From Calditrichaceae bacterium (GTDB lineage: Bacteria; Calditrichota; Calditrichia; Calditrichales; JBFXGD01), in NCBI GenBank assembly GCA_050173015.1, contig JBFXLE010000001.1, forward strand, positions 343,087 to 394,435: a stretch of DNA of 51,349 bases. The letters are read 5' to 3'. The translations under genes were made by a program, and so were the position numbers. The notes beneath the pieces were generated by a model. The model saw only the letters and a program-made list of their open reading frames with translations. It did no database searches and was not told the DNA's origin. This document shows, one piece after another, positions 9,001-23,578 of the stretch (within the stretch, counting starts at the first letter, position 1; each line of letters starts with the position of its first letter).

Positions 9001-12000
9001 GCTCAATCCTGATTCTTCCTATATGGAAATTCTTTCTTCGCCTATCTCCCGGAAATATCTTGCCGGTAAATTTACACTGGGCGGGCTTGATTCGACTGAG
9101 ATCTTATTCAACAGCCTCACGGTTCCTGTTACAATGGATACGGTTATTTATAATGTGAAATGGCGTCTAAAAGGAATATTGCTAAACGGGTCTGATTATG
9201 AAAAAGAAGAAATTATTTTCGGAGTTCTCAAAATTATTCCTGAGGCCAGACTCATATTCACCCAGATTAATATTTTACCCGAAACGGTAAGACAGGGACA
9301 AAATGATATCTCGATCAACTATACTTTGGCTAACATTGGGAAGTCATCGGCGGCCATCAGCAAGATTGATTATATATTCAACGCCGGAGCTACAAATGTC
9401 TCAACACAATGGCTCCCATCTACTATCAATCTGTTCCCGGACACACTCATCGCCGGACAAAGTCGAACCTATTCAATAAATTACAATTTATCGCAATCGG
9501 CAACGACCGGTATTGTCAAACCAAAACCGATTGTTTCCTACAGAGATCTACGGACATCGACTTTCACCGATACATCAAAAACTATCGTTTTCGGTGATTC
9601 TGTACTCGTGATACGTCCGGCCCTTGTGGGAATTGATTCATTAAAGATTATAAAAGATGCGCTTGCGCCGAATGCGCCTAATGTCAATCAGAATGAACCG
9701 TTTAACCTGTTGCTGAGACTTGTAAACAACGGTGCGGACACGATCCGGACCGCATATGTTTCGTTATCAAGAGATGATAATTTCCTGCAACAGCTTGTGA
9801 TGACCGATATCGCTCCATTTAATTACAAAACGTTGATTTACAGCTCTCCGGGATTGGCAATAGACGGATCGACGATATACAAAGTGAAGATTGATTCGGC
9901 GATTGAATTGACAGGAAATCTTGTGACGATTCAACAACCGGTTGATAATTTGGAAACGGTAGTCGTTCAGACCGCCAGCAGTTTAGCGCTCAACGCGGCG
10001 ATTGTTTCACCGGTCGGAGCGGTTGACGGAATTATATCAGTCGGGACAAAATTTAAACTACGCGCGGATGTAACCAGGGTGAGCGGCATTTCACCGTATG
10101 GGAACGGCAGGATGACATTGAGTCTGCCGGATACGGTCCATTACAAATTTGACAGTGATGTCGCGGAAAAAATATTTACACAGTCGCAGGCATATGCTGA
10201 ATGGAATTTGGAAGCGCTTGCAGTAAGTTCCGGTGGCATTTTTGACAGCCTGCGCATTCAGATGAATGAAATTCCGATTGATCTCAATACGGGAAGCGCT
10301 GTGACAACTGTAAAAACGATGGATACGGTTCTGGTCAGGACTGATGAGGCCGGTCTGGTTACCGCGGACATAAGCATTGCCTCACCCGAGGGCGCCCGGG
10401 ACAGCGTCATATCAACCGGACAGGAATTTGTACTTCATACGGAGATAGCTTTCAATCAGTCCGTTCGTGATACCGGCAGAGTAGCGCAGATTGTTCTGCC
10501 ATCCGGTTTCTCTGTAAAAACGAGTTCAATTATAGATTTACCAACTACGCCTACGGCTGCCGTTGATTGGGAAATAGTTGCTCCCGCTTCACCAACACAG
10601 GGAACAGTAAATATAAGTGTCCGGATAAACGGCTATGATAATAACAGTGGAGTTCCGGTTCAGACCACATCAAATCTTCTGCCTGTGCGGGTCGTGTTGA
10701 AATCATCACTGGTTCTGGGATTGAAGATTGTTGAACCCGCGGGCGCGACGGATGACACGGTGTCCGTTGGTCAGACGTTGAAGCTTGAAGGCTTAGTGAC
10801 GCTTCAACCGGGAACAGCTGCCATATCGGGAACCGGTAAGGCATCCATTCTTCTGAGCCCCGAATTTACTTTGATGGATCCGGATACACAAAGGACTTTC
10901 ACTGTAGGCATTCCTTTCTACTGGTGGGTTAGAGTGGATGGCGCATCCACAAAAAGCGCCGCATCGATGGCCGAATTAAAAAGTATTTTGAACGGCATGA
11001 ATAATAAAGACAGTTCACCCGATCTTTACGATGGTGGTGTTGAGCGTCTGGACGGTCCGGTCAATAATGTTGATTTACGGAAAGTGGTTAAAGAGGCGCT
11101 TATGGTAACCGCGGCAGCGAAAGATGCCTACCAGATTACCGTAAAAGTTGACAGTATTCCGCTTGATGTAAATACTCAGCTACCGGCGACCATCAATGAA
11201 ACACAAACAAAAACAATTTATACTGAAGACAGCGCTACTCTTAGTATTGTATCGACAGAAGCACCGGATACTGTCTCAAGCGGACAAACATTTACCTATG
11301 GCGTAACCGGTGCGATTAGTTCAAATCTGGCTAATCCGGTTGCCTATCTCTTAATGCCTGAAAAATTTGGCGGCGCGGTGATCGCCAGGGCTCTTGATAT
11401 TAACAATCAGGCCACTTGGGATATCGCGGTTCCGGCAAATTATACAGGAACTGGGAAAGACACCATTGAAGTGTTTTTAACGGGTATTGACAGAAACAGC
11501 GGTGAAGCGACAGATCCGACTCCGCTTGTGGCCAATCCTTTGACGGTGCAGTTGAGACCAAAACTTTCATTAAAACATACACTCCTATCACCGGTTTCCT
11601 CACAGGCCGGATTACTGTCGTTCGGACAGGAAGTAATAGTTGAGCTTTGGGCTGAATATGCCGAAAATACTTCAGGACTTGATTATGCTTCGGTTCAGGG
11701 TTCGGGAGCGATAAGTCTGGATTCTGCTCTTGTTATACAAAATGGATTTACGCTTGTCGAAGGTGAAACGTTTAAGAAGACATTTACGCAATTAGGTCAA
11801 AAACTGGTATGGCGCATCAAAGCTCCGTTATCAGAACGTACCGTGAGTATAAACTTTAGTTTTGCGGGACTTCCTATAGATAAGAACAGCGGTTTATCTG
11901 CCGAAATCGATATCATGACAGGCCTTGTTTCGCTTCCTGTCAGAGTCAGACAGAAAAATATCACAGTTCTCATGCTAAATGAACTTATTGTTGATAAGAG

Positions 12001-12829
12001 TTTCCTGCGTGGAATGACAGACAGGGCCATTCTCGCATTTTCAATTTCCAATCAGGGATATGAGGATAATTTAAATGTGAATGCGGTCGAGATTGGATTA
12101 CATTCAACTTTCGGCGTACCTTCGCCGGATAACCTCCTCAACCAGCTGGCGTTAGCTAATATGATGAAGAGTCTGAAAGTTGTGAACTATGAGCAGTACA
12201 AAAACGGATTGTCTAAAAATACCGCGGTTCAGCGGCCAAAGGTTTTTGCTGAATATCAGATCGATGAATCTTCGGATAATCCCGTTTGGATGGATTTCGC
12301 ATTAGTGGATACGCTTGAAGCCGGTGCGGTGGATACGATAATTGTTCTGGCGGAATTACAGACCGAAGCGGAAAACAGGAGTTTTAGGACAGTGTTGAAA
12401 CATGTAAATGCCTATGATGTGGATCCATCTGTTCCGCTGGCGATTAAGGATGCTCAGGGTGTGGATATTAATGAAAGCCAAAGTTATACGTCGGAAGCTT
12501 TTACGGTGATTTCCTCAAATCCACAAGAAGCATTCAGAAATTATCCGAATCCCTTCGGCCGGAATGAAGAGTTTACAACGATCGTATTTCAACTTGATCA
12601 TGATTCAGATGTGGAAATCAGGATTTTCACTCTGCTTGGTGAACTGGTTTGGACGAAAATACTGCCAAATCAGATTGCCGGTCTGCACTATGACGACGTC
12701 CGGTGGAATGGCAAAAATGACCGTGGTTATGTTGTTTTGAATGGGGTTTATCTCTGCGCTATTGATATTAAGCCTAAAGGTGGCGGATCGAGGCAGAAAT
12801 TTATTACAAAAATTGCTTATATAAAATAA
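2..12829 (+). CDS. Giant multi-Ig-domain surface protein/adhesin (>4270 aa, 5'-truncated) with invasin/intimin Big_1-like repeats, other beta-sandwich repeats and a C-terminal T9SS type-A/FlgD-Ig-like sorting domain
   Basis: The frame is open from position 2 (YIADQLADW...), so the true start lies upstream of the window. The protein is S/T/G/V/D/N-rich and beta-strand-like. Big_1-like motifs recur (GDGQTDTV..L..PL.VQV.DS.GNPV.GV.V.F). The C-terminus NYPNPF...VEIRIFTLLGELV...WNGKNDRG..V.NGVY...KIAYIK is the typical FCB secretion CTD/FlgD-Ig pattern. Confidence 0.9.
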   Translation, partial: YIADQLADWTTTGSLDAAGSLGASSFTFNPTTAPTSGTIEATVGSIKDATGTITVSVGAVNYVKIRDAANNNGTEIGAVNLTVGQILYLYAAGYDSEDNYNSDVAVDWHVTGTLQGLGDSIGTSSTTLTPLTAGSGEINITNGSGWTNDATGTITVQSGALKSIKIRTATNNGGSELGNYSGQAGSTLDLFAAGYDSYENYLGDQTVAWTVDGDSIGFFSQTDSSTSNTINFTTVNASQIKISRGVLNDYSGIVKVRAGAAFAAARISPETVSGKVNDFISDSLGVVVTDAYGNLVPTVNVAWSTPSDGSLNPVNDVTDSQGISRSKWHLMTTVGTDTARAQVTGIGTPVEFYASTLTSTADSLKYYSGDGQTDTVAQLLSQPLTVQVIDSLGNPVSGVSVTFSVTSHPAAGGHDFVLNPVSASSDGGGFVSTNFTLGSKVGDYVIAAYNSQLLNSPVSFTVSATADVADRLVIVSGDNQTGTAGVALSQPNKLRAVDAYDNPVQGVTINWTPSADGSVNHTGLTTNASGLDSVTWTLQSAAGSDLLTASSPGLTSVDFSATVNPASGDHFVILSSQDSIKVGTSRLLEVALEDAFDNRVSSGQSVTFNRLHGNGLFSNGSGLITKTTDNTGVASALYTVSDSLLYIRDSVEVVFGGVRDTIVLPLKAGNVSYYTFTPSGNNSIAAGGSVNYTLTAHDQFGNPVVNSDQITLSAIGSATAVFSGGPFQFSNSSALNFSVSDNTKGSFTVRAAKSTNTEIKGESGLITVNAAVAEHFVIISSQDAITTDTERLLQVGLEDVHNNRLPASQTVTFRRFNGNGLFSNGLDNINDDTDASGIAEARYTASDSLYYLRDSVEVSFGGILDTIVLPLKAGKVSYYTFTPSGDNTITAGGSVNFTLTARDQNGNEVVNSDQVTLSAVGSATAVFAGGPFVFSSSSTLNFSVSETKKGSFTVRAVKSTNTEVKGESGLITVNPAALNYVLVRTEANNGGIEFADSTFTADNLVNFFSAGYDQYDNYRSDVVVNWTSLGGLDPVTSTGSKFAFNPILAGVTGQIVATHSTYPAVDADTSGIITINPGNLASLRVQINDLNGGPELSDSTITADDFIDVYAVGYDADGNYRGRVSSSWTRSGVISSISPANPTDSLHIEGTLKGTGSVRATAVSNTSVYDNTGLITVNPGAVSYVKIRSESNGGGIEIADSTLAVGQVLNLYSAGYDSDNNFSQNAPVNWNVTGGLTGLGNSTNVYVTTLTPTSPGSGAVQVTNINGWTNDATGTITVQTGELASIRIQTATGAGGAELGAYNATAGGSLDLYAEGYDIKGNYISPINVFWTVDGDSIGAFTQTDSATTNTINFTLANSAQLKIIRGSLNDYSGIIKVRPGAAFAITKITPDTVSGKVNDFISDSLGIRVVDAYNNLVPGASVTWSINSDGTLNPLSDVTDSQGVSRSKWRLKTTVGLDSASAAVAGITSPVTFYANALSSSANTLVYVSGDSLTGTVQDTLAQPFVVRVEDNFGNPVSGVSVTFSVTDHPVNAEHNFNFTQESGLSDASGNVQTFFQLGSKAGQYQISAFNSQLNNSPIKFTSFAVPDTADQILIVSGNNQTGTVGQPLVQYLKVRSVDAYNNPVQGVTIDWTPSLDGSVDHSGLVTNSSGLDSVIWTMRTASGKDTLTVSSPGKTPVVFYAQANADVANTIIAYAGNNRTSIAGGNQQIIAQVQDQYGNFVKDQTVQFIPTQYISNLTDKSDENGLARSLYTTPKKADSSFAKAYITGLVDTAAFKIYGIRYVSNSLEPKVVMPGDTTTFYVKVSNPGVDIVPLDTSRSEFIINDTDYSITTKLDSPLTLPARSLENMLKFKPTVINGGFLSGKYTPEIHLVGRDAYSGMNGTLTTDAVELSIEPLRIVAITILDPASKIVRKGDSINKIQMRIRNTSMYTIRSLSADLTFTPDYGFSEVQISGPDSLLSDSDGIYEFSLDIPFGANPDTITVDGIVMGRYSGTGDLISDTESSITDQFVVANAAVLTFVDYSPKTISAGQNVQFTAQVKNDGVYDVLLNKLSTNIDFGSQKFNLSANQALAGAGTTTTLNFTAADLTIPGGAKYEGLLVLNGTENGAIFNDSLITGDSLNVQNPAVIQINSIIASGTDISQGADTLVTIDVTNTGQASLRVDSLIVIPYGVPVSIAPVLPNTLTGGETRQFDARVTVPTGPDTGLVTIDARGKGIDVNSGSVITAASAAATDSWNVFTPPVISITQIAHVNPEDSLVSQGQAKIPVSVTIKNNGGTSVSINNLNLVAKIGLYSHKWPALPIPLAGHSEITITDSVLVQTNSATGHDTLYASVGYQNNYSGKSSNLTSATFMAWEVTGKPLVEIISVSAVKDFVSQGQTAVNVNVRVKNVGTSPARVETLALNYKNGNGNYTFNPVSPVLPRTIDSGLSQVFTVPVNVNFDAQTGPDTMYASINLTELLSQQNFDITDTTVTDTWQVQQRPQVVIDSVTVTPQLVSTSQTNLRATVYMRNAAGTYRADAQVDSVRLKLMTSGAVERNDLFTITRNSSPSIPLILKPGSSTRFDYNLATLGSTLSDNYSVDGYTGTRDINDGMLTIQDGAVVPGSLTVEQAALLAVNSVAINPDTLSQGQSHGRLSISVTNSGEADAVINSNQLSVSPPINLGPVLISHSTPFNLAGGITDTLIYSLVIPSGYTGTVGVNNTIFGKDSNSGADLSASSGSPGQFFVETPAALSVFETTPNASPGDTTIQFRVKVVNTGEATVELDSNLTTIEIQGTSYLIGLAGTSPQTIRAFPDTTELVFRSTLITGIQSQEYPLRLHVRGTSNKAAYQSDHDAGIFAYGAGLVSITSVGIVGDNRVIPGQTGIQVIMTVSNSGIPLQIDPAGTTLILKSAADGSIRNVNNLNRTDTLTVLKTSSNNRLQFVFDLPDPFPLGQTNIFGQISLDNGNLVKESATFEDMIVLSKANISYVSGSMNPDTLIRRQTDSFAFTFYNAGSADLALNPDSSYMEILSSPISRKYLAGKFTLGGLDSTEILFNSLTVPVTMDTVIYNVKWRLKGILLNGSDYEKEEIIFGVLKIIPEARLIFTQINILPETVRQGQNDISINYTLANIGKSSAAISKIDYIFNAGATNVSTQWLPSTINLFPDTLIAGQSRTYSINYNLSQSATTGIVKPKPIVSYRDLRTSTFTDTSKTIVFGDSVLVIRPALVGIDSLKIIKDALAPNAPNVNQNEPFNLLLRLVNNGADTIRTAYVSLSRDDNFLQQLVMTDIAPFNYKTLIYSSPGLAIDGSTIYKVKIDSAIELTGNLVTIQQPVDNLETVVVQTASSLALNAAIVSPVGAVDGIISVGTKFKLRADVTRVSGISPYGNGRMTLSLPDTVHYKFDSDVAEKIFTQSQAYAEWNLEALAVSSGGIFDSLRIQMNEIPIDLNTGSAVTTVKTMDTVLVRTDEAGLVTADISIASPEGARDSVISTGQEFVLHTEIAFNQSVRDTGRVAQIVLPSGFSVKTSSIIDLPTTPTAAVDWEIVAPASPTQGTVNISVRINGYDNNSGVPVQTTSNLLPVRVVLKSSLVLGLKIVEPAGATDDTVSVGQTLKLEGLVTLQPGTAAISGTGKASILLSPEFTLMDPDTQRTFTVGIPFYWWVRVDGASTKSAASMAELKSILNGMNNKDSSPDLYDGGVERLDGPVNNVDLRKVVKEALMVTAAAKDAYQITVKVDSIPLDVNTQLPATINETQTKTIYTEDSATLSIVSTEAPDTVSSGQTFTYGVTGAISSNLANPVAYLLMPEKFGGAVIARALDINNQATWDIAVPANYTGTGKDTIEVFLTGIDRNSGEATDPTPLVANPLTVQLRPKLSLKHTLLSPVSSQAGLLSFGQEVIVELWAEYAENTSGLDYASVQGSGAISLDSALVIQNGFTLVEGETFKKTFTQLGQKLVWRIKAPLSERTVSINFSFAGLPIDKNSGLSAEIDIMTGLVSLPVRVRQKNITVLMLNELIVDKSFLRGMTDRAILAFSISNQGYEDNLNVNAVEIGLHSTFGVPSPDNLLNQLALANMMKSLKVVNYEQYKNGLSKNTAVQRPKVFAEYQIDESSDNPVWMDFALVDTLEAGAVDTIIVLAELQTEAENRSFRTVLKHVNAYDVDPSVPLAIKDAQGVDINESQSYTSEAFTVISSNPQEAFRNYPNPFGRNEEFTTIVFQLDHDSDVEIRIFTLLGELVWTKILPNQIAGLHYDDVRWNGKNDRGYVVLNGVYLCAIDIKPKGGGSRQKFITKIAYIK
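170..5060 (+). repeat. Intragenic long duplication: about 170-1700 repeated at about 3536-5060 (offset 3366 nt), plus about 101-aa 'x(A/S)xGYD..xNY' domains
   Basis: GYD motifs occur at nt 269, 572, 3023, 3329, 3635 and 3938 (spacing 303-306 nt). Segments such as GWTNDATGTITVQ, SGKVNDFISDSLG and DVTDSQG.SRSKW occur in both copies. Confidence 0.9.
1706..2925 (+). repeat. Tandem intragenic duplication, 2 x 615 nt (205 aa)
   Basis: HFV(I)(L/I)SSQD begins at 1709 and 2324. Both copies share LPLKAG.VSYYTFTPSG.N.I.AGGSVN.TLTA.DQ.GN.VVNSDQ and KGSFTVRA.KSTNTE.KGESGLITVN, with visible nucleotide similarity. Confidence 0.92.
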
Positions 12830-12843
12830 GTGAGATAGCGAGT

Positions 12844-14769
12844 ATGCAAATATTAAAAAAAATATTTAATAGAACAGAAGGCTTATTCGTCACTGTTTTC
12901 GCAATTTTGATATTTTCTTCCGGAGCGGTTGCCCAGGATGGACAGGGTGGGACGGAGAGCAACCTGAGTTTTGGTTATGGCGCCCGCTCGATGGGCATGG
13001 GTCATGCCTTTACAGCCATTGCGGATGATCCGACCGCTGTTTTCTGGAATCCTGCCGGCCTGGAATATATTTATCAACAAAGTGTTACTCTCTTTCACAT
13101 GTCTTTGTTTGAAGGCACGAATTATGATTTTCTCGGCTATGCATTCCCTACTCTTGGGTTGGGGACTTTTGGACTGGGTATTGGACGTATTGGAGTCGGT
13201 GAAATTTTACAGACGGACAGGGATAATGTTTATTTAGGAGAATTTTCTCAGGAAGATTATGAGTTTTATTTCTCATATGCCAAAAAATTGCCATGGGATT
13301 TATCATCAGGGGCAACGATTAGGGTTGTAAGGCGCTCGTGGAGTAACCTGTATGATGAAGGAAGTTTAAATGATATGGGTGTCGGTCTCGATTTAGGTAT
13401 CATGTATCGGCCGGGCTGGTTTACAAACAGATGGCTTCAGGATTGGTCTTTCGGGTTAAATATTCATAACTTATTTCCTCCGCAAGTTAAAGAAGGCATC
13501 GGTGTTGACGATTATCCGATGACCGTCCGCTTGGGTCTTAACAAAATAATCAGATTTGCCGGTGGAGGAGCATTAAACCTGGCCTTTGATTTTGATTATT
13601 CTGAAAAAAGAGATTTAAAACTGAATATGGGGACGGAGTATAGTTTTAGAGACATGGGAATGCTCAGACTGGGTATGGATACCAACGGGTTGACATACGG
13701 CGCCGGAGTTGAATATCGTTTCTTCCAGATAGATTATGGATTTGGCTCTACCGAGTACAGTGATTATTTCTCAGCGGTTCACCGAATTTCGCTGACGTTC
13801 AATTTCGGTTTGACCAGGGACGATCTTTTTACTATTGCCGAGGCCAAACGACAGGAAGAGGAAGATCGTATCATCGCCGAAATACGCGAGGCGGACAGGC
13901 AGCAGTCAATTGTCACACACCTGAAACTGGCGGATGAGTATTTTAACACTGAGAAATATCTGGATGCGATTGTTGAATATCAGCAGGTTATCGGACAGGA
14001 TCCGTTCCATTTCAGGGCAAAAGTGATGCTGGATTCTTCGAATACCATGCTACAGAAAGGTTTTGAATCACAACAGGCTCTCGCGGTCAAAGACGCCCTG
14101 GATAAAGACCGGGCTGAGAATGACAGACGCTATGTGAATGAGCATTTTGAGAAAGGTCGTTTATTCCTTGATAAAAAACAGTTTACAGAAGCATTAATCG
14201 AGTTTAATATATCTCTCGAACGCGATCCGAAGAATGAAACATTGTTGAATGCTATTTCTACTACAAAAAGAAGGCTTTCGGAGGAGATTAACAGCCTTGT
14301 TCGTAAGAGCAGGGAAGAATTTAAAAACCAGAATTATTCCGAAGCGTTGCGACTTCTTGCCGACGCAAGATTGCTTGGTGGGCAGAATGCCGAGTTACAG
14401 ACGGAAATCGAAGCTTTGGCTCAAAGAATAAAATTACAGGAAAATATTCAACAAGGCTTGCTTTTGTACGATATAGGAGAGTATAGTAAAGCATTACAGC
14501 TATTTGAAGGCGTTTTGGATATGGATCCTGAAAATCCGTTGGTTAAACAGTATGTTGAACGGTCGAAAGTCGAAACCATAGGCAAAGAAGATGAAATGGA
14601 TCCGGATGCGGAACGACTTTATCACGAAGGTGTAGAAAAATTTCTCATCGGTAAATATCAGGATGCGATCGGTCTATGGGAAGAAATTTTAATCAAACAT
14701 CCTTATAATAAGAAGGTCCTGGCGGCAATAAAAGGCGCAAAAGAACGTCTTAAGAGCACAGGCAAATAA
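12844..14769 (+). CDS. PorV/PorQ (UPF0164)-family outer-membrane beta-barrel fused to a C-terminal coiled-coil/TPR region
   Basis: Signal peptide ending AVA-QD. Signature GARSMGMGHAFTAIADDPTAVFWNPAGL. The barrel ends ...VHRISLTFNFG (about nt 13809) and is followed by TPR-like repeats (YLDAIVEYQQVIGQDP, FTEALIEFNISLERDPKN, YSKALQLFEGVLDMDPEN, YQDAIGLWEEILIKHP). Confidence 0.85.
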   Translation: MQILKKIFNRTEGLFVTVFAILIFSSGAVAQDGQGGTESNLSFGYGARSMGMGHAFTAIADDPTAVFWNPAGLEYIYQQSVTLFHMSLFEGTNYDFLGYAFPTLGLGTFGLGIGRIGVGEILQTDRDNVYLGEFSQEDYEFYFSYAKKLPWDLSSGATIRVVRRSWSNLYDEGSLNDMGVGLDLGIMYRPGWFTNRWLQDWSFGLNIHNLFPPQVKEGIGVDDYPMTVRLGLNKIIRFAGGGALNLAFDFDYSEKRDLKLNMGTEYSFRDMGMLRLGMDTNGLTYGAGVEYRFFQIDYGFGSTEYSDYFSAVHRISLTFNFGLTRDDLFTIAEAKRQEEEDRIIAEIREADRQQSIVTHLKLADEYFNTEKYLDAIVEYQQVIGQDPFHFRAKVMLDSSNTMLQKGFESQQALAVKDALDKDRAENDRRYVNEHFEKGRLFLDKKQFTEALIEFNISLERDPKNETLLNAISTTKRRLSEEINSLVRKSREEFKNQNYSEALRLLADARLLGGQNAELQTEIEALAQRIKLQENIQQGLLLYDIGEYSKALQLFEGVLDMDPENPLVKQYVERSKVETIGKEDEMDPDAERLYHEGVEKFLIGKYQDAIGLWEEILIKHPYNKKVLAAIKGAKERLKSTGK

Positions 14770-14790: not shown

Positions 14791-17700
14791 ATGTTTAAAA
14801 ATGTAAAAAAAGAAGAAATCACAATTCCGGCTCAGATGAGCTATCTGGTTCAGATACGGGATTTTGTTGAACATATCGGCAAAAAGTACCGATATGATGA
14901 AAAACTGATCAACTCTTTTAAGCTCGTTATTGATGAAGCATGTACAAATGTTATTCGCCATGGTTACAGAGATATCAAAAATGGTGAAATCACTGTTAAG
15001 GCCATTGCCCGCAGATTAAGCCTGACAATCGTCATTATCGATCAGGGACACACATACGATCCGAGACAAGCCAATACGCCCGATCTCGCGAAATATGTGG
15101 ATATCGGTAAAAAAGGCGGTTTGGGAATCATGATGATGCGAAAGCTCATGGATGATTTGCAGTACGCAGTTACCGAACGGGGCAATGAATTCAGGCTTAC
15201 CAAAAAACAGGAACCGCCTGAAGAATCTAAATTTATCAGCAAATGGCGGGCTTTTTCCTTAAGGGCCAAATACTCCCTGGTCGCATCACTTATACTCACT
15301 ATCATCACTACTTTTATTTTTTCCATATTTATTTTTGATGTCAGAAATGATGTTGACGAAGAAGTTTTTGCCCAGGCGGCATCCAATTGTCGTTCCCTCG
15401 CGGATAACGCGATTGACGATCTTCTGAATGAAAATACGCTGGGTTTATTTGAAAAGGCGCGTTCTGTAAAAAACAACAATGAAAAAATAATCCTGGAAGC
15501 ATTTGTTGTACTGCCTGATAACAGAATTGAGGCAAGAAGCACGCCGCTTAAAATGGATGGCCCCGGAAATTATTCAATTCCGGAGAATGCCGTTCAGCTG
15601 GATAGTTTACCTAATGTGAGAGTAATGAGCTATAGTTTAGGCGATAGTAGTCATATTTTTGACCTGTCAACAAATATTCGTCAGTCTTTGTCAGGTGAAG
15701 GCCCGACACTTGGAGAAGTTCATATTTGGGTTGATGAGCGGTCATTAATCGACCTTGCTTCCGCTAAGCGCCTTCGTTTAATCCTTTATTTATTTGTAAT
15801 AATAGCTATTGGTTATGTGGGTGCATTCTTTTTGATCCACCGCATCCTCACACCATTCCAGAATCTTGCTGAATGGGTGCGGCAGGTTGTACATGATAAA
15901 GTTGATCAGGATGAAATTGATATTGATACATCGGATGAACTTGGTGAAATTGCTCAGGCCATTAATGACATGAATTTTAAATTCCGTGAAGCCCAGGTAA
16001 ATCTGATGGAGCAGCAAAAATTGCAGAAGGAATTGCAGGTTGCTCAGGAAATACAGCAGATGCTTCTCCCGAGCGATTTCCCAAAAGTTGAAGGATTTGA
16101 GATTTCATCTTACTATGAAGCGGCAAAGGAAGTGGGCGGTGATTTATTCGATTTTGTTGAAGTCGATGAAGATACTATCGGGATAATTGTCGCTGACGTG
16201 TCCGGAAAAGGGGTTCCCGGATCACTTATCATGACCATGATACGTACCGCTCTGCGTCTGGAGTCACGTGGAAATAAAAATCCGGCGGATGTACTGGCTA
16301 AAGTAAACCGGTTTGTAACGGATGATATGAAACGAGGCATGTTTGTTACCATGTTTTATATCATTCTTGACTCGAGAAATAGAATCATTCATTATGCGAG
16401 CGCCGGACATAATCCGATGATTTTATACCGGGGATCAGCTAAAAAGACATACTACCTTAATCCATCCGGATTTCCCGTAGGAATTCAACTGCCCGATATT
16501 ACCCTGTTCGACAGGAAGATCGAGACAGATTCCATACGGTTAAGAGAAGATGATATTCTTGTGCTCTACACCGATGGAATTACAGAAGCAATGAATTCCA
16601 AAAGGGAATTGTACAGGGAAGAACGATTCCTGGACGCCATTCGTAATAACGGTCATCTTGATGTCGCGGAATTTGTAAGAAGTGTCAAAGATGATCTGAA
16701 AACATTTACCGGAGGCGCCCCTCAAAATGACGATATCACTTTCGTTTCGGTGAAAGAAAAATTAATGCCGGGCGAGGTGATTTACAAAATTCATAAGGAA
16801 TTACTTGATTTAATATCAAATGGAACCCGGGTGAAGGATGCATGTGATCAGATGCGGGTCTCTCAATATCATTATTACAAATATAAGAGCATTGTTGAAG
16901 AAGGCGGGTTAGACGCCCTGAGAGAATATCTCGAAGGGCAGGATTATGTTGAGAAAAAACATTTATCGGTGGAAGTTAAAGCCAAGGTCTTTGATATCAT
17001 TCGCAAACATCCGGAATATGGCGCGAATCGTATTTCTAATGATCTGAATACAGAGCTTTATGGTTTTGAAAAAGTTGATCCGCAGAGACTTTACAATGAA
17101 TTAGTTAAGTTAAAATTAAACACAAAGGAACAGCGGGTTAAATTTGTTAAGAAAGGTGATAAGAGGGCGCTTAAACAACCTGGCACGCCATTATTAACGC
17201 TTGATGGTAAAGTAATTATGAATTTTCAGTCCTCTGAAAGTGAGATCGCTAAGCGTAAAGGCGAACCTACCCAGAAACTGACAAGTCTGCCGATCGAATC
17301 GAAAAAAGCCGTTGTAAGGGAATTTAATACCGATAAAGCCTCAAAAACTGAAAAACAGGGCTCAGAAAGCGTATCTCCCCTTTTCCAGCATCAGACGGAA
17401 AAGCCTGCTGAGCCAGTTAAAGAACCTGATAAAGAGAAATTATCTGAAAAGGTTCCTCCGGCTGAGCACAAAACACCTGAACCAAAACAAGAACCTGAGG
17501 CGGTTCCAGGTCAGGAAAATGATAACAAAGAAACCATCACGGTCAATCAGGATGAGATATTATTTAAGCCAAAAGAACAAAGTGAAAAAAACAGAGAAGA
17601 CCGCGCTGATCGAGCTAAAGAAAAAAGTGATCAGATAGAAAGATTAGCCAGAAAACAGACAAGAGAAGATTTGTTAGCCACGGTGACTATAGAGACCGAT

Positions 17701-18192
17701 TCAGCGGAATTGGCGCACTTTTTTAATTCCATCGCCGACGATCTTGCAGGTATCTCATCTCTTATTAAGGGGATTGATGCCAGTGCCGATGGCGCCCAGG
17801 AGATGAAAAAAATTAATTTAATATTAAAAATTATGTTAAAGAATCCGATATTAAGAAAGCTGCCGGATGTCCAAAGGATTTATAAGCAGGCTCAGGAATC
17901 GGTCGCTCTTCTAGAGTCTAAGTTTAAGGATTTGGGTAAAGAATTTGCTTATTCCAAATTAAAAGACTTATTGAAATATGTCGAAAAAGATTATATATTG
18001 AGTGCTCAATCATCATTAACTGAAGTTAATAATAAAATCGGTATCATTCGCCGTCACATAACTGCAAAATTATCTGCAGCAAAAACTAAACAATCAAGTG
18101 AAATGGATCTTGCCCGGAAAAAGTTGGCTCAGAAAAAAATAGTCAGCAATGCTTCATTGCTGGAATCGTTAGTAAAGAATGACAAGAATTAA
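14791..18192 (+). CDS. Membrane-bound partner-switching regulator: RsbW-type Ser kinase (HATPase_c_2), TM, periplasmic domain, TM, HAMP, SpoIIE/PP2C phosphatase, HTH region, charged linker and helical C-terminal domain
   Basis: N-terminal kinase motifs LVIDEACTNVIRHGY, DQG..YDP and GGLGIMMMRKLMDD. Two hydrophobic helices. HAMP motif DELGEIAQAINDM. PP2C motifs AAKEVGGDLFD, ADVSGKGVP, SAGHNP, LYTDGITEA and QNDDIT. Confidence 0.9.
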   Translation: MFKNVKKEEITIPAQMSYLVQIRDFVEHIGKKYRYDEKLINSFKLVIDEACTNVIRHGYRDIKNGEITVKAIARRLSLTIVIIDQGHTYDPRQANTPDLAKYVDIGKKGGLGIMMMRKLMDDLQYAVTERGNEFRLTKKQEPPEESKFISKWRAFSLRAKYSLVASLILTIITTFIFSIFIFDVRNDVDEEVFAQAASNCRSLADNAIDDLLNENTLGLFEKARSVKNNNEKIILEAFVVLPDNRIEARSTPLKMDGPGNYSIPENAVQLDSLPNVRVMSYSLGDSSHIFDLSTNIRQSLSGEGPTLGEVHIWVDERSLIDLASAKRLRLILYLFVIIAIGYVGAFFLIHRILTPFQNLAEWVRQVVHDKVDQDEIDIDTSDELGEIAQAINDMNFKFREAQVNLMEQQKLQKELQVAQEIQQMLLPSDFPKVEGFEISSYYEAAKEVGGDLFDFVEVDEDTIGIIVADVSGKGVPGSLIMTMIRTALRLESRGNKNPADVLAKVNRFVTDDMKRGMFVTMFYIILDSRNRIIHYASAGHNPMILYRGSAKKTYYLNPSGFPVGIQLPDITLFDRKIETDSIRLREDDILVLYTDGITEAMNSKRELYREERFLDAIRNNGHLDVAEFVRSVKDDLKTFTGGAPQNDDITFVSVKEKLMPGEVIYKIHKELLDLISNGTRVKDACDQMRVSQYHYYKYKSIVEEGGLDALREYLEGQDYVEKKHLSVEVKAKVFDIIRKHPEYGANRISNDLNTELYGFEKVDPQRLYNELVKLKLNTKEQRVKFVKKGDKRALKQPGTPLLTLDGKVIMNFQSSESEIAKRKGEPTQKLTSLPIESKKAVVREFNTDKASKTEKQGSESVSPLFQHQTEKPAEPVKEPDKEKLSEKVPPAEHKTPEPKQEPEAVPGQENDNKETITVNQDEILFKPKEQSEKNREDRADRAKEKSDQIERLARKQTREDLLATVTIETDSAELAHFFNSIADDLAGISSLIKGIDASADGAQEMKKINLILKIMLKNPILRKLPDVQRIYKQAQESVALLESKFKDLGKEFAYSKLKDLLKYVEKDYILSAQSSLTEVNNKIGIIRRHITAKLSAAKTKQSSEMDLARKKLAQKKIVSNASLLESLVKNDKN

Positions 18193-18253
18193 ATCCGCAA
18201 CATTAAGCGGAATGAGAATTGCATAAATAAATTCCCGTAGAAGGAGGATTTGA

Positions 18254-18946
18254 ATGGAAGGAATTCAAGTCTCTACTGAGATTGCAGGTAGTCGGAATCA
18301 TATCTCCATTATAAAAGTTGGTGGATACATCGACACTACAACGTCATCTGAACTGGAGCGAGCACTGGATTCTCTTTTGAGACAAGGGCGGTTCTTCATT
18401 ATTGTTGATCTTGGTAATGTCGATTACATCAGTAGCGCGGGATGGGGGATATTTATCAGTGAGATCAAATCAATCAGAGAAAATGGCGGTGATTTAAAAT
18501 TAGTTCGCATGGTTCCTGATGTTTACGAAATATTTGAACTTCTGGAATTTCATCACATCCTTGATGTATATGATACTGTGGATGAAGCAATAAACAAATT
18601 TGAAATGCTGGAAGCCGCCGGAAAGTCGGTTGCAAAAGAAATCACACTTCCCAAAGCGCCTCAGCCGGCTCCAGCGCCACCAGCTCAAAGAACTGATGAC
18701 AGACGCGCGGAAAAGGTAGGCGTCGCCGAAGAACTTAATGAGATGAATCCGGCAGATCTGAGTATTTCGAGAAAGATACAACTCATTGTTAAGGAACAAC
18801 CTGGTTTTGGGGCGTATAAAATAAAAAAAGCCCTCAATACAGCAAAATTCGGTTATACCCGTATTGGCTGGTTTGAAGTACGCGCTGAGCTTGCGAAGAT
18901 GAGATTAAATAGCAAGTCGCGCAGATACGATTTTGCGACTTCCTGA
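18254..18946 (+). CDS. STAS anti-sigma-factor antagonist (RsbV/SpoIIAA-like) with Pro/Ala linker and C-terminal HTH-like domain
   Basis: Strong RBS AAGGAGG. STAS motifs GYIDTTT and IIVDLGNVDYISSAGWG, with Ser at the phospho-acceptor position. The C-terminal ~60 aa resemble part of the upstream protein. Confidence 0.9.
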   Translation: MEGIQVSTEIAGSRNHISIIKVGGYIDTTTSSELERALDSLLRQGRFFIIVDLGNVDYISSAGWGIFISEIKSIRENGGDLKLVRMVPDVYEIFELLEFHHILDVYDTVDEAINKFEMLEAAGKSVAKEITLPKAPQPAPAPPAQRTDDRRAEKVGVAEELNEMNPADLSISRKIQLIVKEQPGFGAYKIKKALNTAKFGYTRIGWFEVRAELAKMRLNSKSRRYDFATS

Positions 18947-18963: not shown

Positions 18964-19464
18964 ATGATAACTATTATGGATGTTGGTCTGGTCATGACCA
19001 TCCTAATTTCAATTTTATCTAATTTTTATGGTTTGCCGGGAAATTCACTGCTTGCCGGGAGCAGCCTTGTTTATGGTATTTTTACCGGATTTGAATCTTT
19101 TTCGATAACATTTGTTCTGACCCTGTTTGCCATTGTTGTTCTTATTGAATTTCTGGAATTTCTGATTATCTCTCTGACCGCTAAAAAATACGGTGCGTCA
19201 AAGTGGGGAATAAGCGGCGGGATTGTTGGAGGGATACTGGGCGCGATAAGCGGTGCTTTTATAACACCGGTTCTTGGGGCGATTATAGGATCCATTGCAG
19301 GAGTATTTTTGGGCGCGTTTGCACTTGAATTTATCAGAACGACTAATTTAAGAGGCAGTTTGTATTCGGGTCTTGGAGCATTTTTAGGCAAACTCGGCGG
19401 GCTGTCAATAAAAGTTATAGGAACCGTTACCATGGCAATCATGGTCGTCTCAAAAATAATTTAA
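18964..19464 (+). CDS. DUF456-family membrane protein
   Basis: Hydrophobic and Gly-rich, with LPG, AKKYGASKWG..GGIVG.ILG and G..AGVFLGAFALE motifs typical of DUF456/YqgC. Confidence 0.85.
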   Translation: MITIMDVGLVMTILISILSNFYGLPGNSLLAGSSLVYGIFTGFESFSITFVLTLFAIVVLIEFLEFLIISLTAKKYGASKWGISGGIVGGILGAISGAFITPVLGAIIGSIAGVFLGAFALEFIRTTNLRGSLYSGLGAFLGKLGGLSIKVIGTVTMAIMVVSKII

Positions 19465-19527
19465 TTGTAAATAAAAGTTTAAAAGGTTAATTTTCCCGGA
19501 ATGAATGCTCATTTCGGGTTTTTTTTT

Positions 19528-20178
19528 ATGAATATAAAAATCGTCTACTTTTGTACATTTCTTTTCTGGTCTGTATCCTTAAGTCAATCTGTTACACCCG
19601 TGCGGATTCAGTACGGCGGGGGTGGGGACTGGTATGGTAACAAGACCACCTGGGTGAATATTCTCGAAAAGGTTAAGAATGATTATAGCCTTTCTGTCGG
19701 CGGCAGAGAGGTTTCTTTCCGAATTACCGATCCTGAATTCAGACAATACCCCATTGCCTACATCGCCGGTCATGGTAATATATTTTTCACAGACCAGGAA
19801 GCGGCCGCTCTTCGAATATATCTTACAGAGGGCGGATTCCTCTTTGCTGATGATGATTATGGGATGGACAGATCTTTTCGCAGAGAGATGAAAAAGGTAT
19901 TCCCAGAACTGAATTTTGTAAAATTACCTTTCTCGCACCCCATATATCACTTAAAATATCAGTTTGAAAATGGTTTGCCTAAAATTCATGAGCATGCGGG
20001 AGGTCCGCCCGCCGGCTATGGGTTGCTATATGAGGACAGACTGGTTTGTTTCTACAGCTTTAATACGGATCTCAGCGACGGTTGCGAAGATCCGGAAATT
20101 CATAATGATCCTCCGGAAATAAGGGCGAAGGCGCTCGAAATGGCGGTGAACATATTTATCTATGCTTTGTTAAATTAA
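19528..20178 (+). CDS. DUF4159 domain-containing exported protein
   Basis: Motifs YGGGGDWY, GHGNI.F, YL..GGFLFADDDYGMD, LPKIHEH and DLSDGCEDPEIHNDP. The ATG at 19528 gives a signal peptide (the ORF track starts at 19501). Confidence 0.85.
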   Translation: MNIKIVYFCTFLFWSVSLSQSVTPVRIQYGGGGDWYGNKTTWVNILEKVKNDYSLSVGGREVSFRITDPEFRQYPIAYIAGHGNIFFTDQEAAALRIYLTEGGFLFADDDYGMDRSFRREMKKVFPELNFVKLPFSHPIYHLKYQFENGLPKIHEHAGGPPAGYGLLYEDRLVCFYSFNTDLSDGCEDPEIHNDPPEIRAKALEMAVNIFIYALLN

Positions 20179-20182
20179 TCTA

Positions 20183-23100
20183 ATGACTAAAGAACAAAAA
20201 CTTCTTGAGGAAATATACCGGTTTGGAAAGAGAGCGCTGCTCTTTGAGTTAGCGGGTAAAGTGCTGTATATGTTCATCCTGCTGCTTGTATTCTGGATCA
20301 GTATCAGTCTTGCCGATAACGCATTCTATTTCTCGGCGATTACGCGTTGGGGATTATTGATTATCAATATTACCGTATTGGTATTTCTCGGTTATTCCTT
20401 CGTTTATAAACCGCTAAACAACTGGATGTCCCTGACATCATCATCGAATCTAACTCCGGTTGCAAAAATGCTGGGGAAGACATATCCGATGATTGCGGAT
20501 AAACTTGTCAATACCTATCAACTGATAACAAAGCCTGATGAATGGACATCAGAATCTCTGCGCAATGCCGCCATTGACAACTTTTTGAAGCGCTCGGAAA
20601 ATATTGATTTCAGCTCAAAGCTTAAATTGAAATCATATCTTCCTGGCCTAAGATTAGTTATTTCTATTTTGTTCAGCGCTTCTACAATTATTGGGTTTCA
20701 TTTTCATGATGTTAGCCGTTCAACCTTACGCTTGTTAAATCCCTCGAATGAGTATAAAGAAATCCCTCTATACAATTTTAATATAAAACCCGGGGATGTG
20801 AGTGTTGAAAAGGGGAATTCCATTGAAATCGAAGCAAACTATTCAGGACCGCCGCTTAAGGATCTGAGTCTTGTTCTGATGGAGCCGGGAGGAAGAAAAA
20901 TCGTGCGGTCTCTCCCTATGGTCATGGAAAACCATGTTTACCGCGCCGCATTACCGGATGTTAAACTACCTTTTGAATACAGGCTTGAAGGTGTTCCGGA
21001 AAATGAACGTCAATGGAGTGACCGTCTCATCTCGGAAAATTATTCCGTTGAAGTATTAGTGCCTCCGGAAATTTCCAGAATAGATATCCTTCTGACGCCT
21101 CCGGCATACAGCGGTCTCGATAAACAGTATATCGACAGAAACGTCGGTGATATATACGCTCTCGCAGGAACTATCGCAGAGATAAGCCTGGTGACTCAAA
21201 ACCCTGTTCTGGAAGGAAAGATTTATTTTAATTCAGGAGATTCCGTAAATCTTCGGGTGAGGGGAAATCATCTTGAAGGAAAATTTTTCGTAAATAAAAA
21301 TGACCGTTATTCGATCCGGTTAAAAGACAATCAGCATCTTTCCAATATTAATCCCATTGAATACACGGTAAAAATTATGCCCGATAATCCGCCCTGGGTT
21401 GAACTTGTTGAACCCGGAAAAGATATCGAGAGTCCTCTTGACGCCAGAATTCAATTGAAAATCGAAGCATCGGATGATTATGGAATTGGATACGCGTCTT
21501 TATTGTTTCGCTTTGTAAGAAATAATGATTCGTCTGCCGATACCCTCTGGTCAGAAATAAAGCTAAATTCAATAGATGGTAATCGCACCAATAAAGAATA
21601 TTACTACATTTGGGATTTTAATACGCTTCATCTCACATTTAATGACGGTATAAAATATTACGCTCTTGTAAAAGACAACAATGTTGTACGGGGCCCGGGA
21701 CTGGGCAAAAGTAAAATATATTACGTCAGATTTCCCTCGCTTGATGAACTATTTGACTCATTCGCTAAAACTGAACAGGAGAAAGTTGAAGATCTGGAAG
21801 AAGTTGCCAAAAAATCCGAAGATTTAAAAAAGACCCTTGAAGAAATTCACCGTGATCTTAAACGCGAGCAGAAAATGGACTGGGAGACAAAAGCGCAGAT
21901 TGAGAAGACATTAGCTGAGCAACAAAAATTACAAAAGAAACTTGAAGATATCCGGAATGAACTCGAAAAGATGATCGAAAAACTGGATCAAAACAATCTG
22001 ATCAGCCAGGATGTGCTTGAGAAATATATGGAATTGCAGGAATTATTCCGCGAGATAGCAACTCCGGAAATGATGGAGGCCATGCAGGAACTTCAGAAAG
22101 CGCTGGATCAGGCGAATCCAAACGAAATCCAAAGGGCCATGGAAAAATTTAATTTAAACCAGGAAGCCTTTAAGCAAAATGTGGAAAGAACCATTGAGTT
22201 ACTGAAACAGGTGCAATTGGAACAGAAAATGGATCAACTGGTTCAGCAGGCAAAAAATCTTTCTGAACAACAGGAAAAAATTAGCAAAGCATTGAATGAA
22301 GAGGAATTAAACCGTGATGCAATGGATCAATTAGAGACACAGCAGGCACAGCAGGAGGCCAGCTCCGAAGTGCTGGAACAGGGACTGGAAAAACTGGCCC
22401 GGGATCCGTCACTAAATCCTTTTCCGGAATTGATGGAAAATTTAGATTCGGCCGCGGATTTACTGAATGATCCGTCATTTAACAACAGCATGAATGAGAT
22501 GAAACAGAATCTGAGTCAGGGAGATCAGAACGCCGCTTCAGAAAAATCGAAAGATCTTCAGCAAACATTTCAACAGCTTCAGCATAGGTTGAGTTCTGCC
22601 AAAGACCAAATGCAAAACAAGCATAAAAATCAGATTATGAAGAAAATGTCAACGACAATAAGCAGAATGCTTCAACTTTCGCATGAGCAGGAAATTCTTA
22701 AACAACAGACAGAATCCGCGTCAAATCTGGGGACTGAAACACAGAATATCGCGCGCGAACAGGGACGGGTTTTGGAGAATTTTCAAAAAGTCATACACGA
22801 TATTATTCAGCTGTCCAAAGAAACCTTCTTTATCGGACCGGAATTGATTAAACCAATCGGAAACGCGCAATCCAGCATGCACAGAAGCCTGGACGCGCTG
22901 AGCGAAATGAGAAACAGCCAGGCGTCGGGTCAACAGCAGCAGGCAATGGCCGGGTTAAATGAAGGCATTGCTCAAATGCAGATGGCAATGTCACAACTGT
23001 CTAATTCGCAATCGGGAACAGGACTCGAGCAGTTTTTGGAGCAACTTCAACAAATGGCGGGCGCCCAGGGTCAGATCAATCAGGGATCGATGGGTTTGAT

Positions 23101-23578
23101 TCAGGGGCAGGGAAATCAGGGACAGTTCACTCCCGGACAACAGGCTGAAATGAGAAGACTTGCGGGCCAACAGCAGGCGCTTCGGGACGCATTGCAAAAA
23201 ATGAATGAGGAAACGGGTTCGCGCGGAGATGTTCTAGGCCGAATTGGCGAATTGGGTCAACAAATGGAAGAAGTCGTAAGGGATTTGTTAAAAGGAAACG
23301 CAGATAGAAAAACGATTGAACGCCAGCGTCAAATTTTATCGCGTCTTTTAGACGCCCAAAAATCCGTTCAGGAGCGTGAATATTCAAAGCAGCGAAAAGC
23401 AGAAAAGGCAAAAGACTATATAGCGAAAGATCCGCGGGAAATTGAGAATCAGGAAGATAAAAATCGAAAAGAAATCCTTGACGCGATGCGAAGAGCTTTA
23501 AATGAAGGGTATAATCCTGATTTTCAGAAACTCATCGAGGCGTATTTTAAATCCCTGAGTACAGCAGAAACAAAATAA
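20183..23578 (+). CDS. DUF4175-family membrane-anchored protein with Ig-like domains and long Gln/Glu-rich coiled coil
   Basis: Three N-terminal TM segments. Motifs PPAYSGL, PDNPP.V.L..P, ASDDYGI and YYALVKDNN. The QQ-rich helical C-terminus ends YQ/FQKLIEAYFKSL-type. Confidence 0.8.
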   Translation: MTKEQKLLEEIYRFGKRALLFELAGKVLYMFILLLVFWISISLADNAFYFSAITRWGLLIINITVLVFLGYSFVYKPLNNWMSLTSSSNLTPVAKMLGKTYPMIADKLVNTYQLITKPDEWTSESLRNAAIDNFLKRSENIDFSSKLKLKSYLPGLRLVISILFSASTIIGFHFHDVSRSTLRLLNPSNEYKEIPLYNFNIKPGDVSVEKGNSIEIEANYSGPPLKDLSLVLMEPGGRKIVRSLPMVMENHVYRAALPDVKLPFEYRLEGVPENERQWSDRLISENYSVEVLVPPEISRIDILLTPPAYSGLDKQYIDRNVGDIYALAGTIAEISLVTQNPVLEGKIYFNSGDSVNLRVRGNHLEGKFFVNKNDRYSIRLKDNQHLSNINPIEYTVKIMPDNPPWVELVEPGKDIESPLDARIQLKIEASDDYGIGYASLLFRFVRNNDSSADTLWSEIKLNSIDGNRTNKEYYYIWDFNTLHLTFNDGIKYYALVKDNNVVRGPGLGKSKIYYVRFPSLDELFDSFAKTEQEKVEDLEEVAKKSEDLKKTLEEIHRDLKREQKMDWETKAQIEKTLAEQQKLQKKLEDIRNELEKMIEKLDQNNLISQDVLEKYMELQELFREIATPEMMEAMQELQKALDQANPNEIQRAMEKFNLNQEAFKQNVERTIELLKQVQLEQKMDQLVQQAKNLSEQQEKISKALNEEELNRDAMDQLETQQAQQEASSEVLEQGLEKLARDPSLNPFPELMENLDSAADLLNDPSFNNSMNEMKQNLSQGDQNAASEKSKDLQQTFQQLQHRLSSAKDQMQNKHKNQIMKKMSTTISRMLQLSHEQEILKQQTESASNLGTETQNIAREQGRVLENFQKVIHDIIQLSKETFFIGPELIKPIGNAQSSMHRSLDALSEMRNSQASGQQQQAMAGLNEGIAQMQMAMSQLSNSQSGTGLEQFLEQLQQMAGAQGQINQGSMGLIQGQGNQGQFTPGQQAEMRRLAGQQQALRDALQKMNEETGSRGDVLGRIGELGQQMEEVVRDLLKGNADRKTIERQRQILSRLLDAQKSVQEREYSKQRKAEKAKDYIAKDPREIENQEDKNRKEILDAMRRALNEGYNPDFQKLIEAYFKSLSTAETK

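Follow-up and report, generated by a model that had tools for sequence, protein, structure and literature searches.

A transposase-type helix-turn-helix module behind the PP2C domain of a predicted membrane kinase/phosphatase in Calditrichota, with a copy of its second half on the neighbouring STAS protein

Partner switching acts by protein-protein exchange, usually on sigma factors, and for several STAS outputs, SypA among them, we know of no target that has been identified. HsbR-HsbA of Pseudomonas is presumably arranged in a way similar to the SypE-SypA pair. In Vibrio fischeri, SypE combines an N-terminal serine kinase with a C-terminal PP2C phosphatase, both directed at the STAS protein SypA, which is itself the downstream output (PMC10120452). 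Here we analyse a window of 51,349 nucleotides (nt) from a Calditrichaceae bacterium (GenBank assembly GCA_050173015.1, contig JBFXLE010000001.1, positions 343,087 to 394,435 of the forward strand; all positions below are those of this whole stretch), focusing on a gene for an 1133-amino-acid (aa) enzyme with kinase, HAMP and PP2C domains. Its PP2C domain is followed by a bipartite helix-turn-helix (HTH) module of the type that opens the transposases of IS481 insertion sequences (IS), and the next gene encodes a STAS protein with a related HTH tail. We regard it as very probable that this segment is a fixed, selected, transposase-type HTH module. The parts are of known kinds; what is new is that they are combined, that the combination extends over two phyla and that HTHs are paired on enzyme and substrate.

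By analogy, the enzyme may work like SypE, with a transmembrane sensor and HAMP domain in place of the receiver domain. As in SypE, kinase and opposing phosphatase for one STAS protein belong to the same polypeptide. SypE is soluble with a central receiver, whereas the enzyme described here has two membrane spans, a sensor region and HAMP; Pfam gives no Response_reg match in it, and the hydrophobic spans and HAMP occupy the central position. A further difference from SypE-SypA is that enzyme and STAS protein both carry transposase-type HTHs. With RsbU/RsbV/RsbW and SpoIIE/SpoIIAA/SpoIIAB the locus shares the three domain families, with their catalytic and phospho-acceptor motifs conserved, but here kinase and phosphatase are fused and membrane-bound, the cassette holds no sigma gene, and the proposed output is a DNA-binding STAS tail. 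No sigma factor gene was found among the open reading frames (ORFs) at 17-30700, the remaining genome not having been searched for a partner. At the level of listings and abstracts, the literature yielded no paper joining a transposase-type HTH with SpoIIE/PP2C or STAS proteins; a description elsewhere is possible. A term search of a review of STAS-only proteins found none of the words 'DNA-binding', 'helix-turn-helix' or 'transposase' (PMC8256260).

An earlier note on this DNA, made from the letters alone, had compared the segment with the N-terminus of IS481-type transposases. At the level of sequence, its resemblance to the bipartite HTH of IS481/IS3 transposases is real and far above chance. 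The NCBIfam model transpos_IS481 (NF033577) matches the segment with an expectation value (E) of 3.3e-9, covering profile positions 6-109 of 284, and IS3 follows at 1.6e-4; on IS481 the segment scores 36.7 bits and the entire protein 32.6, both under the curated cut-off of 224 bits. When the orthologous segments of 48 Calditrichota genomes (alignment A1, from which locus L036 with an in-frame TAG was left out) were searched at E<=0.01, IS481 was matched by all 48 (best 5.5e-12), IS3 by 43/48, ISNCY by 28/48 and IS630 by 12/48. Matches to the HTH regions of IS481, IS3 and IS630, the families named in the note, were thus recovered by profile search. Of the Pfam families that it proposed to check (HTH_28, HTH_29 and HTH_32), two are reached by orthologues: P0132 exceeds the cut-offs for HTH_32 (41.1 bits) and HTH_28 (37.4 bits), and at E<=0.001 HTH_28 is matched by 29/70 orthologues and HTH_32 by 27/70, while the window protein itself has sub-threshold matches to HTH_23, HTH_28, HTH_29, HTH_32 and HTH_Tnp_1 (E 0.0016-0.046).

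Direct comparison with transposases gave the same picture. BLASTP aligned the module with a true Calditrichota IS481 transposase, L140, at 37% identity over 82 aa (E 2e-10); L140 scores 280.7 bits on the IS481 model and has at least 8000 relatives with rve domains, some of them named IS481 family transposase at source. Against 21 transposases (18 relatives of L140 and three others), hhalign returned a probability of 98.1% and E 1.1e-13 over 111 columns spanning both HTHs, with 32% identity, and among Atlas clusters the nearest ones contain HTH_28/29/32 and LZ_Tnp_IS481. Module and IS481 transposases have in common two homologous HTHs, the order of their helices, and conserved serine and aromatic positions where the first recognition helix begins. 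They differ in that the enzyme is without a DDE/rve core or terminal repeats and is present in single copy, fixed in a syntenic operon behind PP2C. A loop in the second subdomain is, in addition, three residues longer (LNTxxYG), a feature common to the STAS tail and absent from the transposases, and a PGTP..DG motif stands where the core would begin.

None of the hallmarks of a mobile element accompany the segment. As the earlier note had it, the module lies directly after PP2C in an intact frame (aa 663-785 behind aa 460-655 in ORF 14791..18192), and translation of 16777-17145 on the forward strand gives exactly the peptide quoted there. Since PP2C ends at aa 655 and the module begins at aa 663, the latter starts eight residues past the phosphatase, on the predicted cytoplasmic side. 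The absence of a DDE core was borne out, rve/DDE (PF00665) being without a match at E<=1 anywhere in the 1133-aa protein; coverage of the IS481 profile extends to about position 109-122 of 284, and hhalign stops at module residue 123 and transposase residue 124. Nor are there flanking inverted repeats: 15800-18300 contains just two short imperfect pairs, of 17 nt (88%) and 15 nt (87%), both inside coding sequence and neither IS-like, and no GC shift occurs across the segment. The genome to which the window belongs has one full copy of the module, a weaker match in the next gene, and no intact IS481 over the cut-off. IS481-like fragments are found on a small contig of that genome (G000:C42:18401-19512; best 78.2 bits), with one internal TGA. 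True IS481 elements over the curated cut-off occur in 3/86 Calditrichota genomes, a sporadic distribution compared with that of the module.

The module itself is present in 83/86 Calditrichota genomes, including 52/53 of high quality, in frames that are nearly always 750-1280 aa long; the exceptions are G046, with a short STAS-type match alone, G009, where the gene is split across contigs, and a few frames cut at contig ends. In a second phylum, that of a genome titled Zhuqueibacterota (G091), module and extension were found at E<=1e-20 in 96/101 sampled genomes, mostly in frames of 1000-1700 aa; one of these 96 positives, G180, is an unpublished genome. A scan of species-representative genomes confirmed 129/160 pattern matches, of which 80 loci were kept; their record labels, as recorded, include KSB1, Zhuqueibacterota, metagenome-assembled genomes (MAGs) labelled Cytophagia, Bacteroidota and Cloacimonas, and others. 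The enzyme region is shared by 71 relatives, whose source names are SpoIIE family phosphatase or RsbU-anti-sigma regulatory factor. Across 69 full-length enzymes, columns of the module score 0.5-0.75 in conservation; the corresponding values are 0.7-0.87 (catalytic domains), 0.27-0.40 (sensor) and about 0.2 (tail). The ratio of nonsynonymous to synonymous substitution (dN/dS), calculated against a congeneric genome, comes to 0.063 in the module, compared with 0.010 in HAMP-PP2C and 0.165 in the tail. Sixteen sampled enzyme modules formed one clade in the tree with support of 100/100. Conservation among orthologues and dN/dS, both of which the earlier note had singled out as informative, turned out as expected of a domain under purifying selection (83/86 and 96/101 genomes in two phyla, dN/dS 0.063).

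These data dispose of the simplest alternative, a recent insertion scar left by a decaying IS481 copy that landed in the gene, which has sequence resemblance alone to commend it. The frame is intact, the same position is occupied in 83/86 and 96/101 genomes of two phyla, dN/dS is 0.063, and there are neither IS ends nor a GC shift; on distribution and selection we rule the scar out as practically impossible. Two interrupted copies were seen: the orthologue at L036 (G020:C37) has an in-frame TAG in the module, and at G040:C14:18760-19123 the module extends over two frames with a TGA. These interruptions may be sequencing errors, pseudogenes or recoding.

The AlphaFold (AF2) model of the module has a mean predicted local distance difference test (pLDDT) score of 91.5 and consists of two helical subdomains that meet at residues 57-59 (module numbering, as used in this paragraph). 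Subdomain 1 is modelled with helices at 2-14, 19-25 and 30-55 (pLDDT >90). Subdomain 2, with modelled helices at 65-77, 83-90, 102-111 and 117-122, starts with a near-invariant KHLSIExKxK and has H62, S64, E66, K68, K70, G82, L90, Y95, Y106 and R120 as invariant residues. Directly past the module, an extension of 30 residues with the PGTP..DG motif is conserved more strongly than both HTHs, its K133, G136, T137, P138, D143 and G144 being invariant in 70/70 sequences (alignment A3). Two features had escaped the earlier note: this more conserved motif behind the module, and a copy of subdomain 2 on the STAS neighbour. The module always follows PP2C, and the parts after it vary between a helical tail, TPR repeats and three STAS domains.

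The adjacent STAS protein is the second carrier of this HTH type. Its DYISSAGWG stretch, which includes S60/S61, is invariant in 69 sequences, and these residues are the candidates for the conserved serine at the phospho-acceptor position of a cognate STAS protein. After a disordered linker (aa 127-164, pLDDT <50) comes the tail, modelled as four helices within residues 171-229 (pLDDT 83-88). BLASTP aligns it to module subdomain 2 with 31% identity over 59 aa (E 1e-9), and hhalign gives a probability of 98.7% (E 3.7e-16) against the module and of 66% (5.5e-5) against transposases; by these alignments the tail is closer to module subdomain 2 than to the transposases. Pfam HTH_21 is matched by 29/70 orthologous STAS tails, and the tail from the window has no Pfam match at E<=0.01. 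The tail is strongly basic (net charge +9, isoelectric point 10.4, with 69 orthologues averaging +8.7); the STAS domain is at -10. The STAS gene lies downstream of the enzyme in 72/80 loci, and a full STAS-plus-tail gene was found elsewhere in 5/5 tested genomes without an adjacent copy.

Enzyme and STAS protein both carry related transposase-type HTHs under selection, with kinase and PP2C motifs intact and the acceptor region invariant. In the mechanism that we propose, a bipartite HTH of transposase lineage (IS481/IS3-type) would have been fused once, long ago, C-terminal to PP2C and retained as a working domain. The protein would be a membrane-bound, bifunctional partner-switching enzyme, combining an RsbW-type kinase at the N-terminus with a transmembrane sensor, HAMP and PP2C, and would control the phosphorylation state of the neighbouring STAS protein. 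The basic C-terminal tail of the latter would bind DNA, as would the membrane enzyme through its own bipartite module, so that the switch would act directly on DNA, not via an anti-sigma/sigma pair; the PGTP..DG motif may additionally hold the free STAS protein. DNA binding as the job of the module, and likewise of the STAS tail, is the role we favour, with chances that we place a little short of even, in view of the homology, of how strongly charged the tail is, and of the module persisting in forms that have STAS covalently fused. The larger picture is more doubtful: a sigma-independent partner switch that reads out on DNA, with the STAS protein as a phosphorylation-gated DNA-binding protein and the enzyme on the same DNA by way of its captured transposase head, is conceivable, and we put it forward tentatively. 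ToxR and CadC are membrane-bound one-component transcription regulators. The locus would share their logic only as proposed, that of a membrane-anchored sensor with its own DNA-binding domain; it differs in DNA-binding fold and domain order and in having enzymatic domains and a separate phospho-substrate in between.

Several observations weigh against a DNA-binding module of transposase type. In the window protein the Pfam HTH matches fall below the gathering thresholds (HTH_28 with 18.1 against 25 bits, HTH_32 with 14.7 against 33.7), and the module is mildly basic, with a net charge of +2 and a subdomain 1 at -2. The membrane tether would limit access of the enzyme to DNA. No operator was recognized in the enzyme-STAS spacers, which hold only ribosome-binding sites or a promoter, and upstream of the giant surface-protein gene at the head of the cassette lies a co-directional ORF without consensus promoter or terminator matches. 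Structure comparison is likewise indecisive: Foldseek against the PDB gave no match at E<=0.001, its top rows, Pax paired domains and TnsB, being insignificant, and among 48,161 chains VIA-align found none reaching Z 8, its best value of 6.2 being within the tool's 'common arrangement' range. Nearly all of the best 50 VIA-align matches are DNA-binding HTH, Myb or homeodomain-like domains, and those covering the whole model are bipartite transposase heads, namely Tc3 (1u78, Z 5.9), Mu (4fcy, Z 5.6), Mos1, TnsB and IstA (Z 5.1-5.9); they are consistent with an HTH or bipartite transposase head and prove no membership. A search of the module profile against PDB sequences yielded nothing beyond weak rows and short, repeated alignments to designed armadillo proteins that are spurious.

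The main rival to DNA binding is a docking or scaffold role, in which subdomain 2 and PGTP..DG would hold the substrate at the membrane enzyme without DNA, by contacting either the related tail on a free STAS protein or a third partner common to both. It would account for the same subdomain being present on enzyme and substrate in two phyla, for the co-occurrence of the pair even when unlinked (5/5 genomes) and for the invariance of PGTP..DG in 70/70 split systems. The comparison of fused and split forms also bears on it, and speaks in this respect against DNA binding: PGTP..DG is present in 0/8 STAS-fused forms and in 42/60 unfused PP2C-bearing forms with room for it (a regular-expression count uncorrected for relatedness), as would be expected if the motif, at least, served in docking. 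The contrast may, however, reflect one clade, and the motif is also missing from 18/60 unfused forms. The HTH module, on the other hand, is retained in forms with three STAS domains fused to the same chain, where docking of a free substrate would be needless. Direct pairing is further disfavoured by the charge of both putative partners, which are basic at about +4 and +9, and SpoIIE and RsbU dock their substrate by loops of the PPM domain itself (PMC11418112), which would make an extra docking domain unusual. All in all we consider docking unlikely; DNA binding and docking could both hold. In three all-in-one proteins of 1438-1511 aa (P0130, P0131 and P0222), which have kinase, HAMP, PP2C, module and three STAS domains in one chain, the PGTP..DG, KHLSIE and LNTxxYG motifs are missing.

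Another ligand or role has also to be weighed: the module might bind a different polyanion (RNA or anionic membrane lipids) or regulate PP2C or the kinase within the enzyme, the HTH fold being a mere scaffold. Consistent with this, the enzyme is membrane-tethered, subdomain 1 of the window is not basic, and conservation peaks at the junction and behind the module (KHLSIExKxK, PGTP..DG), not in the presumed recognition helices. Yet typical transposase-HTH features are kept across two phyla, nucleic-acid binding is the simplest explanation of the strongly basic STAS tail, and no observation points specifically to lipids or RNA, so that we judge this explanation very unlikely.

Whichever function applies, where the module came from is a separate matter. 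Judging from its sequence relationships, it was likely domesticated from a transposase. A profile search of 1.84 billion representatives gave 576 matches at E<=0.001; the 52 examined that were not ortholog-like comprised 21 tandem-HTH GT2 glycosyltransferases, 18 HTH-only proteins, 11 PP2C fragments or variants and 2 STAS proteins. Two results count against a transposase source here. First, the nearest non-orthologous relatives are tandem HTH modules and not transposases, and rve is present in 0/52 of these proteins. Second, a tree of 16/48 module sequences, 8/21 transposase rows and 12 tandem-HTH pieces leaves the enzyme clade (stem 1.93) unplaced between tandem-HTH proteins and transposases, with split support of 84/82. 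Alternatively, the module may never have belonged to a mobile element, transposases and enzyme having both drawn on an old cellular HTH_28/HTH_32 pool. This would agree with the closest non-orthologous relatives being non-transposase (21/52 GT2, 18/52 HTH-only, 0/52 rve), with a tree that does not separate enzyme modules, tandem-HTH proteins and transposases, and with an hhalign match to IS481 that stops before the catalytic core, no vestige of which has been demonstrated. Against such a pool, every best match among curated families is to a transposase family (IS481 in 48/48), the tandem-HTH proteins may themselves derive from transposases, and in a MAFFT alignment the PG of the motif falls on a PG ahead of core strand 1 in three true IS481 transposases, which is only suggestive. 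We hold a cellular origin to be rather unlikely. Of the 'domesticated transposase HTH' in the earlier note, then, a fixed, non-mobile transposase-type module in a signalling enzyme stands, while the direction of descent does not follow from a tree that leaves the source undecided, and a role as output or interaction domain is a hypothesis. PGTP..DG was also considered as a remnant of core strand 1 and its catalytic Asp. This reading is not supported, the NCBIfam match ending at profile position 112-122 and the hhalign match at residue 123, and it serves as a lead only.

The GT2 fusions are another non-transposase home for this HTH type. These tandem HTH_28/HTH_32-type plus GT2 proteins (P0156, P0175, P0194, P0196, P0198, P0213 and others) are 488-2949 aa long; most have two copies in the profile search, and one is named as coming from a Patescibacteria MAG. 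Parallels lie in vertebrates, where genes that fuse a transposase DNA-binding domain to host domains give rise to new regulators (10.1101/2020.05.07.082677). Such capture, like that of Pax, is eukaryotic and proceeds by exon shuffling, whereas here the fusion is bacterial, in frame to a signalling enzyme and conserved across phyla; the papers on capture of transposase domains found in listings and abstracts were all eukaryotic.

Coordinates of the features discussed are collected in Table 1.

Table 1. Features of the enzyme gene and the STAS gene in the window
Feature	Residues and details	Position	Strand	Basis
Membrane kinase/phosphatase gene	1133 aa	14791..18192	+	intact ORF
RsbW-type serine kinase, HATPase_c_2 (predicted)	aa 12-138	14824..15204	+	Pfam E 2e-26
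Two hydrophobic spans	aa ~162-182 and ~330-349	15274..15837	+	by eye from translation
HAMP	aa 347-394	15829..15972	+	Pfam E 2.9e-7, 31.2 bits, cut-off 25
PP2C/SpoIIE phosphatase (predicted)	aa 460-655	16168..16755	+	Pfam E 1.9e-50
Module subdomain 1, first HTH, HTH_28/HTH_23 type	aa 663-718	16777..16944	+	
Module subdomain 2, second HTH, HTH_32/HTH_21 type	aa 722-785	16954..17145	+	aligns to second HTH of IS481
Conserved extension	aa 786-815; K795, P797-G-T-P800 ... D805-G806	17146..17235	+	alignment
Variable tail, low-complexity linker and helical C-terminal region	aa 826-1133	17266..18189	+	
STAS gene	230 aa	18254..18946	+	next gene after enzyme
STAS domain	aa 1-121	18254..18616	+	Pfam STAS E 3.7e-20; model pLDDT 82-91
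Basic helical STAS tail	aa 165-230	18746..18943	+	paralogue of module subdomain 2

The catalytic domains of the enzyme retain their motifs. Kinase N-box and G-box residues (E49, N53, H57, D84, G86, G106-G112) and the Asp motifs of PP2C (G449-G450-D451, D469, T594-D595-G596, D647-D648) are each kept in at least 97% of 69 orthologues. The region between the membrane spans is presumably an extracytoplasmic sensor, and Pfam gives no Trans_reg_C match in the enzyme, which is thus without an OmpR-type winged helix. The variable tail, with an occupancy of 0.3-0.8 in the 69 full-length enzymes, is limited to part of the phylum. Its linker is rich in Lys, Glu and Pro and its helical C-terminal region belongs to no Pfam family (best E 0.78); similarity drops beyond the closer Calditrichota loci, with none detected in many distant ones, where the enzyme is shorter or has other tails.

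The enzyme gene is part of a tight co-directional string, in the order 4270-aa surface protein, 641-aa protein, enzyme, STAS protein with tail, DUF456, DUF4159 and DUF4175, and this gene order recurs in 80 loci. Upstream, at 17-14769, are the 4270-aa Big_1/FlgD_ig surface protein and the 641-aa barrel/TPR protein, UPF0164-like in its N-terminal part, separated by gaps of 15-22 nt; most of the 80 related loci show synteny for the C-terminal and barrel parts of this pair. The DUF456, DUF4159 and DUF4175 genes follow the STAS gene at 18964-23578 with gaps of 4-36 nt and are syntenic in most Calditrichota, not in KSB1-type loci. Between enzyme and STAS gene the Calditrichota spacers are mostly 25-60 nt long, with a ribosome-binding site only. 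The 61-nt spacer of the window (18193-18253) contains a small hairpin-capable element, ATCCGC..GCGGAAT, which is kept in a congeneric locus (L060) with one compensating change. KSB1/Zhuqueibacterota-type loci (L095, L097, L099, L103, L104, L124, L128, L134, L135 and L139) have a conserved promoter-like TTGACT ... TATATT of their own before the STAS gene, in a spacer of 90-140 nt.

If the proposed mechanism is true, a signal from the giant surface protein and outer-membrane barrel encoded upstream would be converted into gene control at the membrane, and a STAS protein with a DNA-binding tail, together with an enzyme bearing a related DNA-binding head, would provide a direct and testable output route. 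The module adds a concrete, assayable part to this cassette of surface protein, barrel and phospho-switch. It would also represent a bacterial, phylum-spanning counterpart of vertebrate 'transposase capture', and suggests that a transposase DNA-binding region can stay fixed and functional in a signalling enzyme of bacteria over the time since two phyla separated.

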